The translations under genes were made by a program, and so were the position numbers. The notes beneath the pieces are model-generated. The model saw only the letters and a list, made by a program, of their open reading frames with translations. It was not told the DNA's origin and did no database searches. DNA of 64,000 bases from Verrucomicrobiota bacterium. Its GTDB lineage: Bacteria; Chlamydiota; Chlamydiia; Chlamydiales; SM23-39. Location of the stretch: positions 19,409 to 83,408 of the forward strand of contig JAGWKO010000001.1 in the NCBI GenBank assembly GCA_028873295.1. Reading direction: 5' to 3'. This document shows positions 42,903 through 46,895 of the stretch, piece after piece (within the stretch, counting starts at the first letter, position 1; every line of letters starts with the position of its first letter).

Positions 42903-45900
42903 ATGTTAGCAGGTATTAATAATTATATTGATCGAAGAATCAATAAACTAAATGAATCTATCAATGACTGCTCCAGCAATGGAACGATAGTTAATCCAAT
43001 ATCTATTGATACTCTCAAAAAATCTATAACTGCGCTTGAAAATGCTCAATTGAATCAATTTTCTGTTATCGCGTTTAAAATAGCAAATTACGTTGTAAAG
43101 ATTTTCTACAAAGAATATGCATTAATAGACAATCTTTTAAACTTAAACAACGTGTCGAAAAGATTGGTTGAAGACTACACCACTATAATTAAAACAAGAT
43201 CTTTTGATGATGCAGGGATTATCTACGACACCTCAATCAAGCGCATGGAGAGCCACCTCCCCTCCCCTTCTTCCGAAAAAAAACTTCGAGTGGCAATGGT
43301 GGGCGTAGAGTATGCGGATCTATTAAAACAGGGGGGGCTTGCCGAGGCCATCACCGGATTGTCAGAGAGTCTGTGCGATTTAGGAAATGAAGTCCAACTG
43401 GTCTTCCCAAAATATAGCAGCTTGCCAAGCTCTATTAGCGATGCCTTAACAGATCCGATTGTCCACAAAACAAACGATGGGGAAGAATATAAGGTTTATA
43501 GTTACACAATCGGAAAGGTTCGCTGTCAGTTTATTGAGCATTCGGCCTTTGAAGTAGAAAAAGGCAACATCTATCAATTAGACGCCAAGGCAACATCTCT
43601 TCTTTTCTCTACTTTCACAGCCCTCTCGACCGAGCTGCTCTATGAACAAAAAGAAGATTTTGACGTGATCCATCTTCACGACTGGCACGTTGCGGGAATC
43701 GAACTTAAGATGAAAGCCGATCATGAACAGGAGTGGAAAGAGGGACGGGTACCAGCGATTGTCTTCACGTTCCATAACCACCAAAGAGGCTCACAAGGAA
43801 GAACTTATGAGGGGTTTTACAATTATGACCCGGTGATTAATGGATACAAAACTTCAGGAATAATAAAGACAAACGACAATTTATTCGTGCGCGCCTTGGA
43901 GGAAGCCGATGCCGTGACAACAGTGTCACAAACCTTTGCAGAAGAGACGCAACTTCCTGAAAAGGGAGAGGCAGTTTCATTTGCCATTCGTCAGGCGGCT
44001 CGCGTAGGGAAATTGGCGGGAGTTCTCAATGGCGCCAATTTGTCCAGGTGGAATCCAAAAACAGATAAAAATCTGGTCAACTGGAAAGAGATATCAACGG
44101 GAACGCCTCTTGACTTGAGCTTTGATGAAAATGATTTCGATCTCATTAGAAAGAAGGATCTCATACGTAGCGAGCTGCACGCTTGGATTACGAAATATAA
44201 ACCAGGAATAAAGATCGATTTTTCAAAGCCGATCATCACCTATATCGGGCGTTATGACACCTACCAAAAGGGATTACATCGCCTCTCTCCTGCAATTAAA
44301 GCAATCCTGAGGAATGAGGGCCAATTCATCTGCATGGGGACAGGCGAAGATCCAGAAGCTAAAAAGATCCTGGATCAAATCGAAAAAGAGCACAAAAATG
44401 GAGTTTTTGTAATTCGAGACTATAGAATGGAGAATGGAAAGCTCTATTATCAAGATGGGGATCAGGACCGGCCTGGCATCAGCTCACTTGTTCGAGCGGC
44501 ATCTGACTTTATCTTTATTCCCTCCAATTTTGAACCGTGTGGGCTTGTTCAATTTGAAGGATGGCAATATGGCGCGCTTGCTATTGGCGCAGCAACAGGC
44601 GGTCTTGCAGATAGCATTAATTCCGAAAACGGGTTCCTGTTCAAAGGAAGCGACGATCTTGCAGCTGTTATCGCAAAAGCATTAACCGCTCGCAAAAAGC
44701 AAACTCTTGAAGAGAGAAGTGCTCAGATTCGCCACGTTATGACAACGGTAAAAGGCTCGAGCTGGTTAGAGAGCGCAAAAAAGTATCAGACCGTCTACAA
44801 CTACGCGATCTCTCACAAATCCAAGAGAGGGGAAAAGAGAGAGCTTTCTTTAGTAGAGACTTGCAGACATAGAAAAATAGTTTCCCTTGCCACTCAAAAG
44901 ACCGCAGAAGAAGAGTACCTTGAGGCCTACTATACTTCCTCCGAATCTGACAGCCTCTATCTTCACAGGCTCTACCAGAAAGTTGATCGGTGTCGAAGAT
45001 ATTGCCTCCCCTCTCCCTACGGAACGCGGGTAGATTATAAAAAACATGAGAGATTGGGAAGTTTTCCTGATGGCAGATTTGCCGTAAGCGCCCCTGAAGC
45101 GACAAAAGTCGAACTGATTCTGACAGATGATGATGGGAAGGAAAGAACAATCCCTATGAAAAAAAATAGCGGGGTATGGCACACATCTGTCCCTAACATC
45201 TCCATAGGGCAAAAATATCAGTACCGGATCAATGGCAAGACAAGCAAAGTCGATCCTTATGGAAAAGAGCACACCTACTCTTTAGACTCTTCAGGGACCA
45301 GAACTCACTACTCTCGTGTCTCGAACTCTCAATTCCAGTGGAGCGATACAGAATGGCTCTCGACGCGCAAGCGATCCACAGGCTCTCCTAAACCTTTAAG
45401 TGTTTACGAGGTTCACCCACACAGCATGCAAAAAGACATTGGATATCGAGAGCTCGCGGAGATTTTGCATAAACATTGCGAAAAAACACATTACACACAC
45501 GTAGAGCTAATGGGAATTTTAGAACACCCGGATGTTCGTTCCTGGGGATATCAGGTGACAGGCTACTTTTCTCCTACAAGCAGATTGGGGTCAATGGATG
45601 ATTTCAAGTATCTCGTCAACTATCTCCACGAGAGAAATATCGGGGTTATCTTAGATTTTGTCCCAGCGCACTTTGCAAAGGATAACCACGGTCTTGCACA
45701 GTTTGATGGCTCTAACAAGTACGAATCTGATGGGGTATATTACAAAGCCAGCCTACAGCACTGGGCGTTTGGCTTTGGAGCAAAACATTTCAACCTGCAA
45801 AACAAAGAAGTTCGAGATTTCCTGACCTCCAGTGCCATGTATTGGATTCAAGAGATGCATATCGATGGATTGCGCATCGATTGCGTGCGAAGTCTTTTAA

Positions 45901-46895
45901 ACACTTGGGATTCTGAGTCGTCTGAACTGTTTATGCGGGACCTTAATGCAGCAGTCCACATACATGGAGAGGGCGCTATCACTATCGCAGAAGAGTTTTC
46001 CGGCAACACCAAGATGACACTTCATCCAAATGCAGATGGCTTCGGGTTTGATTATAAATGGCATATCGCATTTCTGCGCAAACTCTTCGACTATTTTACA
46101 ATTTCTCCCGATCAAAGATCAGGGGCCTATGCGTCAATTAAAACCATGGTAAATAGCGACAATTTCCACAAACAGATGCTCTTCATTAGCCATGATCAGG
46201 CAGACGATTTATTTAAAATTAACCAAAAACTGACAACCGATAAAGAGCAGAAAGCGCAAATGAGGGCCATTTTGAGTTTCATGATGTGCTTGCCGGGGAA
46301 GAAACTGAACTTTATGTCGCTAGGGAGCAACACTCCTATTGAGTGGAAAAACTATCCAGAAGACGAAAGATTCATTAATGAACATCAACAAGACGAAACA
46401 CTCCTTGCCATGATAGGAGCTCTCAATCAGCTCTACACTCAGGAAAGCGCCTTTTATGAATTTGACGACAATGGCACGAACCTTGAGGACAAGGTAGTGA
46501 CAGAGAAAGATGGTGCAGATCTTGAAGATAAGGCGACAGAAGAGAGGGGTAGTCCTTCATTCTACAACAGAGTCGCAGCCCTATGGATGGGGACTCCGCC
46601 GGTACAAGAAAAGAAAGGTAAACAGCGTATCGAAAAATATTGGGTGGAAGATCCAGGAAAGATCTATCACGGTTATTGGAGGAAAAGTAGTAAAGGAGAT
46701 CAGTTCCTCTGTCTTCATAATTTTACCGATAAAAAAACTTCCTACATCCCATCAGGGGAAGAAGAATTTACCGAGGTGTTTAATAGCGATCATGTGAACT
46801 ATGGCGGAACTGCCTCCTCAACGCAGACTCAAAAAAAAGGATTTGAGATCGCCCCCCTCTCCACTATTATTTTAAAGAAGAAGGAAAGCATATGA
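42903..46895 (+). CDS. glgA-glgB: Glycogen synthase (GT5 GlgA) fused to GH13 branching enzyme (GlgB) with ~126-aa N-terminal extension
   Basis: GlgA part: KQGGLAE (KxGGL) and FEPCGLVQ..ATGGLADS. GlgB part: a CBM48-like segment, then DFVPAHF, GLRIDCV (Asp codon 45879..45881), IAEEF and SHDQ. Confidence 0.85.
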   Translation: MLAGINNYIDRRINKLNESINDCSSNGTIVNPISIDTLKKSITALENAQLNQFSVIAFKIANYVVKIFYKEYALIDNLLNLNNVSKRLVEDYTTIIKTRSFDDAGIIYDTSIKRMESHLPSPSSEKKLRVAMVGVEYADLLKQGGLAEAITGLSESLCDLGNEVQLVFPKYSSLPSSISDALTDPIVHKTNDGEEYKVYSYTIGKVRCQFIEHSAFEVEKGNIYQLDAKATSLLFSTFTALSTELLYEQKEDFDVIHLHDWHVAGIELKMKADHEQEWKEGRVPAIVFTFHNHQRGSQGRTYEGFYNYDPVINGYKTSGIIKTNDNLFVRALEEADAVTTVSQTFAEETQLPEKGEAVSFAIRQAARVGKLAGVLNGANLSRWNPKTDKNLVNWKEISTGTPLDLSFDENDFDLIRKKDLIRSELHAWITKYKPGIKIDFSKPIITYIGRYDTYQKGLHRLSPAIKAILRNEGQFICMGTGEDPEAKKILDQIEKEHKNGVFVIRDYRMENGKLYYQDGDQDRPGISSLVRAASDFIFIPSNFEPCGLVQFEGWQYGALAIGAATGGLADSINSENGFLFKGSDDLAAVIAKALTARKKQTLEERSAQIRHVMTTVKGSSWLESAKKYQTVYNYAISHKSKRGEKRELSLVETCRHRKIVSLATQKTAEEEYLEAYYTSSESDSLYLHRLYQKVDRCRRYCLPSPYGTRVDYKKHERLGSFPDGRFAVSAPEATKVELILTDDDGKERTIPMKKNSGVWHTSVPNISIGQKYQYRINGKTSKVDPYGKEHTYSLDSSGTRTHYSRVSNSQFQWSDTEWLSTRKRSTGSPKPLSVYEVHPHSMQKDIGYRELAEILHKHCEKTHYTHVELMGILEHPDVRSWGYQVTGYFSPTSRLGSMDDFKYLVNYLHERNIGVILDFVPAHFAKDNHGLAQFDGSNKYESDGVYYKASLQHWAFGFGAKHFNLQNKEVRDFLTSSAMYWIQEMHIDGLRIDCVRSLLNTWDSESSELFMRDLNAAVHIHGEGAITIAEEFSGNTKMTLHPNADGFGFDYKWHIAFLRKLFDYFTISPDQRSGAYASIKTMVNSDNFHKQMLFISHDQADDLFKINQKLTTDKEQKAQMRAILSFMMCLPGKKLNFMSLGSNTPIEWKNYPEDERFINEHQQDETLLAMIGALNQLYTQESAFYEFDDNGTNLEDKVVTEKDGADLEDKATEERGSPSFYNRVAALWMGTPPVQEKKGKQRIEKYWVEDPGKIYHGYWRKSSKGDQFLCLHNFTDKKTSYIPSGEEEFTEVFNSDHVNYGGTASSTQTQKKGFEIAPLSTIILKKKESI

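Follow-up and report, generated by a model that had tools for sequence, protein, structure and literature searches.

Can a single polypeptide suffice to build branched glycogen? The question is raised by a 64,000-nucleotide stretch (hereafter the window) of a metagenome-assembled genome (MAG) filed as a Verrucomicrobiota bacterium (GenBank assembly GCA_028873295.1, contig JAGWKO010000001.1, positions 19,409 to 83,408), which carries at 42903..46895 on its forward strand a complete gene of 1330 codons plus stop joining a glycogen synthase (GlgA) to a glycogen branching enzyme (GlgB). Glycogen metabolism is among the few storage pathways kept by obligate intracellular chlamydiae, and it is linked to host manipulation. 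We consider it probable that the product is a bifunctional synthase-branching fusion with a folded accessory N-terminal domain, encoded by a chromosomal gene that an uncultured chlamydia-like bacterium inherited vertically. The question can be put to experiment, and the compact, intact 1330-residue protein is a convenient construct for doing so.

The open reading frame (ORF) runs from an ATG at 42903 to a stop codon at 46893-46895, and its 3993 nt are unbroken. An initial annotation, made from the letters of the window without database searches, had described a single 1330-residue ORF that fuses the two enzymes; the ORF list and the Pfam domain scans agree with this, and the gene is colinear with 52 homologues. 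Pfam matches on the protein comprise Glyco_transf_5 (residues 129-358), Glycos_transf_1 (435-600), CBM_48 (725-787), Alpha-amylase (880-1132), and Alpha-amylase_C (1258-1326), and the same two halves are matched by the NCBIfam GlgA and GlgB models and by solved structures. The layout is a 128-residue AT-rich N-terminal region, a GT5 synthase, an 84-residue linker, and a short-form GH13 branching enzyme, all described below with forward-strand coordinates. Each of the motifs listed in the initial annotation was recovered (KQGGL at residue 142, FEPCGL at 543, TGGLADS at 565, DFVPAHF at 918, GLRIDCV at 989, IAEEF at 1028, and SHDQ at 1096).

The GT5 glycogen/starch synthase domain spans residues 129-640 (43287..44822) and is identified by Pfam, by structure alignments, and by Foldseek, its Glyco_transf_5 score of 113 bits lying well above the cut-off of 22.7. 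Its key residues are K142-x-G-G-L, H259-D-W-H262, N376, R450, K456, E544 (in FEPCGL), and G566-G567. In the alignment with Escherichia coli GlgA (3d1j/2qzs), K142, H262, N376, R450, K456, and E544 correspond to K15, H161, N246, R300, K305, and E377, and the half could also be aligned residue by residue to Arabidopsis SS4 (6gne), its best solved match (E = 1.3e-34). The catalytic and binding residues are invariant in 53 family members, save K142 (44/53). The predicted structure has the GT-B two-Rossmann fold, with Foldseek template modelling (TM) scores of 0.77-0.81 against 6gne, 3d1j, and 1rzu. The window synthase thus shares with the stand-alone GlgAs of E. coli (2qzs/3d1j) and Agrobacterium tumefaciens (1rzu) and with SS4 the GT-B fold, the K-x-G-G-L and HDWH motifs, the R/K pair, and the glutamate of FEPCGL. 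However, its identity to these enzymes is just 24-26%, one extra residue separates the Arg from the Lys of the R300/K305 pair, and, unlike the solved stand-alone synthases, it has a helical domain at its N-terminal end and a branching enzyme at its C-terminal end.

The branching half consists of a CBM48 domain (residues 725-830, 45075..45392; Pfam CBM_48, 50 bits), seen as beta strands in the model and aligned to the N2/CBM48 domain of solved GlgB; a GH13 catalytic (beta/alpha)8 domain (831-1195, 45393..46487; Pfam Alpha-amylase, and 322-372 bits with the NCBIfam GlgB models); and an all-beta C-terminal domain (1247-1330, 46641..46892), modelled as beta strands, whose Alpha-amylase_C score of 21.3 bits is just over the cut-off of 21.2. 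The four GH13 regions, aligned with Cyanothece BE1, keep all catalytic residues: D918 and H923 in region I, R991 and the nucleophile D993 in region II, the acid/base E1030 in region III, and H1097 and D1098 in region IV. All of these are present in 52-53 of the 53 family members. The residue alignments to solved enzymes therefore bear out the proposal that the GT5 and GH13 catalytic sets are both complete within one polypeptide, neither domain being dead by alignment.

Against solved branching enzymes the Foldseek TM scores of this half are 0.80-0.84, and the best fits are natural short forms of ~600 residues and N-terminally truncated E. coli GlgB. The best fit to naturally short enzymes implies that the missing N1 domain is no defect in itself. 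Like the enzymes of Rhodothermus (8zqa/6joy), Faecalibacterium BE2 (21jh), and truncated E. coli GlgB (1m7x), this half combines a CBM48, a (beta/alpha)8 barrel, and a C-domain without N1, and it has regions I-IV and the Asp-Glu-Asp triad in common with these short-form GH13_9 enzymes. It differs from them in its sequence (25-28% identity), in the family-specific helical linker and synthase that precede it, and in a 51-residue insertion between the catalytic and C-terminal domains (residues 1196-1246, 46488..46640). This insertion (DKVVTEKDGADLEDK...QRIEKY) is in frame and of normal GC content, and among 50 full-length family members it occurs in the window protein alone, the 49 others lacking it; a tandem-repeat search for its origin found none. 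On average, two family members share an identity of 0.52-0.53 over the synthase half and of 0.49 over the GH13 barrel, values similar enough to indicate equal constraint on both halves.

The two enzymes are connected by a family-specific linker (residues 641-724, 44823..45074) with EExYL..YY and PxPYG motifs, whose length is nearly constant, at 80-100 residues in nearly all family members. No solved GlgB matched the linker, the GlgB alignments beginning at ~712-725. In the AlphaFold2 model, residues ~668-724 form confident helices (predicted local distance difference test, pLDDT, 88-96), and residues ~641-670 are flexible.

The initial annotation mentioned glgA-glgB fusions from Waddliaceae- and Criblamydiaceae-type chlamydiae, and such fusions have indeed been described in these two families (Colpaert et al. 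2021, Commun Biol 4:296; PMC7935935), the examples being Waddlia chondrophila WP_013181537.1 and Estrella lausannensis WP_098037869.1. They were presented as a unique oddity of the two families and as a sign of a dying classical pathway (PMC7935935). Both have the order of the window protein, GT5 synthase followed by GH13 branching enzyme in one ORF, and both come from Chlamydiae. The termini of the two proteins are given by the primer table of that study (PMC7935935). An exhaustive HMMER search retrieved a 452-residue protein (P0237) that ends ...SPLKISSKKIFG, its C-terminal SKKIFG being that encoded by the Estrella reverse primer. This protein, equated with the Estrella protein from the primer and not from an accession, shows 43% identity over window residues 99-410 and includes module B of the N-terminal domain (see below), which places the window protein in the published family. 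No retrieved protein had the Waddlia termini (MTVSAI..., ...EVHHG), and the Waddlia protein may sit under a representative of a 50%-identity cluster. A word-indexed protein search, run with either the single sequence or a profile, gave an identical set of ~55 proteins from which both published proteins were missing.

The family is large. A search for homologues and domain architectures of the kind proposed in the initial annotation yielded more than 75 intact two-domain proteins, from metagenomes; the HMMER search gave about 25 core representatives at 50% clustering plus further divergent two-domain proteins. The 53 aligned members are 36-51% identical to the window protein, and its closest fusion relatives (48%) are MAG or metagenome proteins. 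One 1503-residue protein (P0216) has the reverse order, branching enzyme then synthase, and may be an independent fusion. A scan of GTDB genomes with the family alignment found mostly ordinary glgA/glgB loci and only one true fusion (L001, 1973 residues). Three non-chlamydial loci with both halves within ~3.2 kb (L014, L002, and L004) were rejected as fusions, the genes being separate and adjacent. The fusion type is therefore already published, and the window holds an intact, compact member of it; what is new is the family context and the accessory parts, since the published description (PMC7935935) makes no mention of the N-terminal domain, the linker, or a downstream partner gene, and holds the branching half to be dead. 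The window protein also differs from the published fusions in its unique insertion near the C-domain and in its host, which belongs to an uncultured lineage. The Estrella copy is frameshifted (PMC7935935), whereas the frame is intact here over all 3993 nt, an intactness that the initial annotation had called informative.

In the mechanism that we propose, the GT5 half would elongate alpha-1,4 chains, with ADP-glucose as the likely donor by analogy with the Waddlia enzyme, whose synthase half is active and specific for ADP-glucose (PMC7935935). The partly structured linker would hold the short-form GH13 half (CBM48, barrel, and C-domain) in a fixed position, and this half would cut the growing chain and re-attach the piece by alpha-1,6 bonds, elongation and branching being coupled within one polypeptide. 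The AlphaFold2 model of residues 131-1330 has a mean pLDDT of 87.3 and a predicted TM score (pTM) of 0.83, a value that, for two enzymes in a chain of 1200 residues, implies a definite arrangement of one half against the other, although pTM gives neither the relative position of the two active sites nor the openness of the GlgB cleft.

That limit is one of several points that weigh against a doubly active enzyme. The unique insertion is predicted to be a disordered loop (pLDDT 31-49), and it adjoins the catalytic barrel. On the synthase half, NCBIfam TIGR02095 scores 258 bits, below its cut-off of 328, and on the branching half the equivalog cut-offs are likewise unmet (NF003811, 372 vs 741; NF008967, 370 vs 577; TIGR01515, 322 vs 464). 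Scores under the curated cut-offs mean that both halves are divergent from the canonical enzymes; as far as sequence comparison goes, they would weaken the case for a canonical GlgB equivalog and not that for GH13 membership. Neither glgC nor any other glycogen gene lies within the 64-kb window (glgP, glgE, treS/mak, and glgB2 are all absent from it), and a source of ADP-glucose is not evident there. Finally, the Waddlia fusion took up ADP-glucose but gave no alpha-1,6 nuclear magnetic resonance signal, and the authors concluded that its branching half is blocked by the N-terminal synthase domain (PMC7935935).

The last result favors an alternative in which only the synthase half is active, the branching half being sterically silenced and kept as a glucan-binding or structural module while a separate GlgB2 does the branching. 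Waddliaceae and Criblamydiaceae do keep a separate glgB2 (PMC7935935; PMC11046441). We nevertheless judge this arrangement somewhat unlikely. A role in binding alone would not explain why D993, E1030, D1098, H923, H1097, and R991 are retained by 52-53 of 53 members that have diverged to 37-50% identity, or why the barrel shows the same level of identity as the synthase. The negative result, from the only biochemical assay of such a fusion, concerns one recombinant protein in one assay with a maltoheptaose primer, and natural short branching enzymes of the same domain set are active. The invariant catalytic sets and the equally conserved branching domain, both read from alignments, argue against the published view of a generally dead branching half.

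The public gene model gives the protein another start. The protein is present in NCBI as MDE3055132.1 (P0001; "glycogen/starch synthase [Verrucomicrobiota bacterium]"), a model of 1247 residues that starts at an internal GTG, codon 84 (43152..43154), and begins MSKRLVEDY. An in-frame stop lies 15 codons 5′ of ATG 42903. A profile of the family N-terminus built without the window sequence matches residues 8-97 (E = 1.7e-18) and residues 1-83 alone (E = 4.9e-16), still matches residues 1-83 when the four compact relatives are also taken out (E = 6.9e-15), and does so only in the ORF's own frame. The homology of residues 1-83 to the N-terminus of the family means that the public start is wrong and that a conserved module is lost from the public model; by these comparisons the true start is ATG 42903, and the annotated one is mis-called, 83 codons too late. 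A scan of the upstream region for promoter and terminator consensus sequences found no sigma-70-like site, the consensus being uninformative for chlamydiae.

The N-terminal domain thus restored comprises residues 1-128 (42903..43286) and is defined by the family alignment, the profile match, AlphaFold2, and GC content. Within it, a variable head (residues 1-46), poorly conserved at an identity of 0.15, is followed by two modules that are length-conserved in the family alignment: module A (residues 47-96, 43041..43190; consensus L-N...[LI]K[IV]xN[FY]V[IV]KIFN..Y..ID.LL) and module B (residues 104-128, 43212..43286; consensus I-Y-D-x-S-x-E-R-L), the latter continuing into strand beta-1 of GlgA. 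The first ~126 residues, described in the initial annotation as matching neither enzyme, do have matches, the region being homologous to the N-terminal region of the fusion family (E = 5e-16, with the window excluded from the profile). An AlphaFold2 model of residues 1-680 made with the family alignment (mean pLDDT 90.7, pTM 0.83) shows four helices in the domain, at residues 2-25, 35-48, 52-68, and 74-98, mostly at pLDDT 81-92. As modelled, the leader is a conserved folded four-helix domain rather than a disposable signal, and it is undescribed in the literature on the fusion.

The initial annotation was right in calling this region AT-rich. Its GC figures are exact (0.35 at 42961-43020 and 0.483 at 45301-45360), and over the whole leader GC is 0.328, compared with 0.445 for the rest of the gene, and lower at every codon position. 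No other 384-nt stretch of the window is as AT-rich as the leader (0.5th percentile). A foreign origin was considered and rejected, since the region is homologous at the protein level across the family and AT-richness is common to the leaders of relatives too; it reflects an Asn/Ile/Lys-rich composition plus low GC at third codon positions.

Every complete family member has an N-terminal extension, mostly of 270-340 residues. The compact form of ~127 residues is found in the window protein and its four closest relatives (P0002-P0005, 46-48% identical to it), whereas in other members a variable insert of 140-220 residues separates modules A and B. The Estrella-type protein P0237, with module B and the long-form insert, contrasts in this respect with the 128-residue leader of the window, which is not of ~300 residues. 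Local hidden Markov models (HMMs) for the parts recovered 55 two-domain proteins with module A, the insert/module B region, and the linker; about 22 GlgA-only proteins with the extension, some of them fragments; and 16 GlgB-only proteins in which the linker HMM matches behind a separate N-terminal extension. In one of these 16, a protein of 895 residues (P0201), module A stands directly before the linker and GlgB, with no synthase. The nearest stand-alone synthase relatives among the loci that we fetched (L008, L051, and L067; 181-241 bits), from environmental MAGs of the Planctomycetes-Verrucomicrobia-Chlamydiae (PVC) group and chlamydiae, are 823-1197 residues long with extensions of 200-590 residues; unlike the window protein they have no branching enzyme attached, they show no detectable module A, and they are 28-33% identical to it. 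The extensions of 200-250 residues in L008 and L051 match the insert region of the family (E about 1e-10). The presence of the extension on GlgA-only and GlgB-only proteins implies that it predates the fusion and can accompany either enzyme. We read the 128-residue four-helix domain as a compact version of the extension of 270-340 residues, which would pack on the synthase and may serve oligomerization, localization, or partner docking, in place of a cleaved or disordered signal.

The initial annotation had taken the leader for a possible secretion signal, and in its fullest form this alternative makes the protein a type III-secreted effector that makes glycogen in the inclusion or the host cytosol, with an N-terminus composed of a signal and a chaperone-binding domain. 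There are precedents: the N-termini of Chlamydia trachomatis GlgA and GlgB work as type III secretion signals (PMC4829429), the enzymes act in the inclusion lumen (PMC3722199), and type III-dependent secretion of GlgE and TreS-Mak has been reported in a preliminary form (PMC7935935). The identity of 0.15 over the first 46 residues is also what a composition-defined signal would show, and the neighborhood is rich in effector-type genes (F-box, SET, and LRR-NEL). However, residues 2-25 are predicted to be helical (pLDDT 81-89) and not disordered, and the conserved part of the leader is modelled confidently as a folded domain together with GlgA. The first 20 residues of the C. trachomatis enzymes, which are of ordinary length, suffice as signals (PMC4829429), and a signal of ~20 residues would leave the other ~100 leader residues unexplained. 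A two-enzyme chain of 1330 residues would have to unfold for export, and GlgA-GlgB was not in the set tested for secretion by Colpaert et al. With two length-conserved modules in a conserved four-helix domain and with related extensions on stand-alone GlgA and GlgB-only proteins, a secretion leader is at best weakly supported, and we regard the effector hypothesis as unlikely. The first 25-45 residues, which are poorly conserved, may hold a short signal for type III secretion.

The bifunctional fusion that we favor appears to be expressed with a partner. Directly downstream lies a 339-residue ORF (46892..47911, forward strand), conserved downstream in relatives, whose start overlaps the stop of the fusion (ATGA); no terminator was found between the two, and the genes are probably co-translated. 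The product is 31-35% identical to that of the gene directly after the fusion in two relatives (L085 and L086), and it also matches the N-terminal part of the gene after the fusion in L082 and, in L081, a gene lying 6 kb downstream. All five partner sequences have a G-x-[C/S]-x-G elbow, with Cys in four of them and Ser in the fifth, and an Asp and a His are invariant. Searches of Pfam and the PDB with the 339-residue ORF gave only sub-threshold alpha/beta-hydrolase matches. From these motifs the product is probably an uncharacterized alpha/beta hydrolase with a putative Cys/Ser-Asp-His triad, co-expressed with the fusion.

Taken further, the fusion may be no relic but the core of a conserved three-part module of environmental chlamydiae, namely a helical docking domain, a rigid and doubly active synthase-branching enzyme, and a translationally coupled hydrolase, in which the helical domain would assemble or target the glycogen machinery, possibly for export to the inclusion. 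We put this forward as a speculation of doubtful standing. If it were true, the published conclusions of a branching half dead in all fusions and of a defunct GlgC-type pathway in fusion-bearing lineages would be wrong for most of the family.

The opposite proposal, a decaying relic of a GlgC pathway in the course of replacement by the GlgE pathway and without selected function, follows the reading published for Waddliaceae and Criblamydiaceae. The published fusions go with loss of glgC and glgP and with a glgE-treS/mak-glgB2 operon (PMC7935935). The GlgC pathway is judged defunct in Waddliaceae and Criblamydiaceae, GlgE replacing it (PMC7935935), a view repeated in a 2024 Chem Rev review (PMC11046441). 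Colpaert et al. read the fusions, of which the Estrella copy is frameshifted, as stages of disappearance (PMC7935935), and the absence of glgC from the window is in keeping with this. Against it stand the intact frame, the more than 75 intact two-domain relatives, the invariant catalytic residues, and the conservation of linker length, leader modules, and downstream partner gene. Intact frames, invariant residues, and the conserved linker, leader, and partner indicate purifying selection across the family, and we find a functionless relic very unlikely. The family suggests instead that the fusion is common in uncultured chlamydiae, with both active sites under purifying selection and the accessory parts conserved.

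An artefact of assembly or sequencing that merged two adjacent genes could be suspected, since the window comes from a MAG and other bacteria have separate head-to-tail glgA and glgB (6 bp apart in the Desulfovibrio locus L002). It has a negligible chance of being true, given that over 50 homologues from independent assemblies (NCBI, ENA, JGI, and Logan) are colinear over the GlgA/GlgB junction, with a family-specific linker of 80-100 residues found in neither stand-alone enzyme. The colinear homologues and the constant length of the linker exclude, as far as comparative data allow, the missed stop or frameshift at the junction about which the initial annotation had cautioned.

The host of the gene is chlamydial. 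The GyrA encoded in the window (32064..34517, reverse strand) is 77-82% identical to many proteins of Chlamydiales, Chlamydiia, and Parachlamydiales MAGs. No cultured species occurs among its top 120 matches, and several of the relatives are also labelled Verrucomicrobia or Verrucomicrobiota. GyrA and the gene content together point to Chlamydiota, so that the NCBI label Verrucomicrobiota is likely wrong; in practical terms, then, the public record combines a gene model that starts 83 codons late with a MAG that is probably misassigned. The gene content includes a TLC transporter-like protein, an LRR-NEL E3 ligase, two F-box proteins, a SET-domain protein, and a kinase-FGE fusion, a set of a sort typical for amoeba-associated chlamydiae. 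The suggestion that the fusion places the window in the Waddliaceae or Criblamydiaceae was not supported: the top 120 GyrA matches include no cultured species, and members of the fusion family are labelled Rhabdochlamydiaceae, Parachlamydia, and Protochlamydia. The fusion is therefore not diagnostic of the two published families, with the proviso that taxonomic labels of MAGs are weak and unreliable evidence.

Vertical inheritance is indicated by the neighborhood. A block of MgtE, DciA, gyrB, gyrA, and tmk (thymidylate kinase) adjoins the fusion both in the window (37418..31429, reverse strand) and in L082, the locus of the family member P0030, although the L082 fusion is just 39-43% identical to that of the window and the gyr block is inverted relative to the fusion in the window. 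That the nearest stand-alone synthases among the fetched loci are PVC/chlamydial points in the same direction.

On the other side of the fusion the loci differ. Three relatives (L084, L086, and L082) have a divergently transcribed Glycos_transf_1 gene of ~750-780 residues beside the fusion, duplicated in L082. This gene of ~770 residues is absent from the window, which has a SET gene, an F-box gene, and an unannotated ORF of 284 residues on that side. Between the SET gene and the fusion are two small ORFs, candidate genes of 77 and 73 residues (42313..42546 and 42628..42849, both forward strand), with hydrophobic, signal-peptide-like N-termini and no Pfam match. Rfam and tRNA scans of the window gave no matches.

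Genes for eukaryote-like proteins are clustered around the fusion locus. These are the two F-box genes (11139..12713 and 38965..40104, forward strand), the SET-domain gene directly upstream of the fusion region (41432..42115, reverse strand), and a homologue of DUF268 ("Caenorhabditis protein"; 28329..29135, forward strand). The LRR-NEL gene (8843..10960, reverse strand) encodes a leucine-rich-repeat protein of 705 residues with a C-terminal NEL domain of the IpaH/SspH-type E3 ubiquitin ligases, and is a candidate host-targeting effector. In the kinase-FGE fusion (17853..19640, reverse strand), a Ser/Thr protein kinase domain is joined to an FGE-sulfatase (formylglycine-generating enzyme-like) domain. 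Lastly, the window contains two paralogous AAA_14/DUF4143 ATPase genes, at 16664..17827 on the forward strand and at 30088..31356 on the reverse strand.

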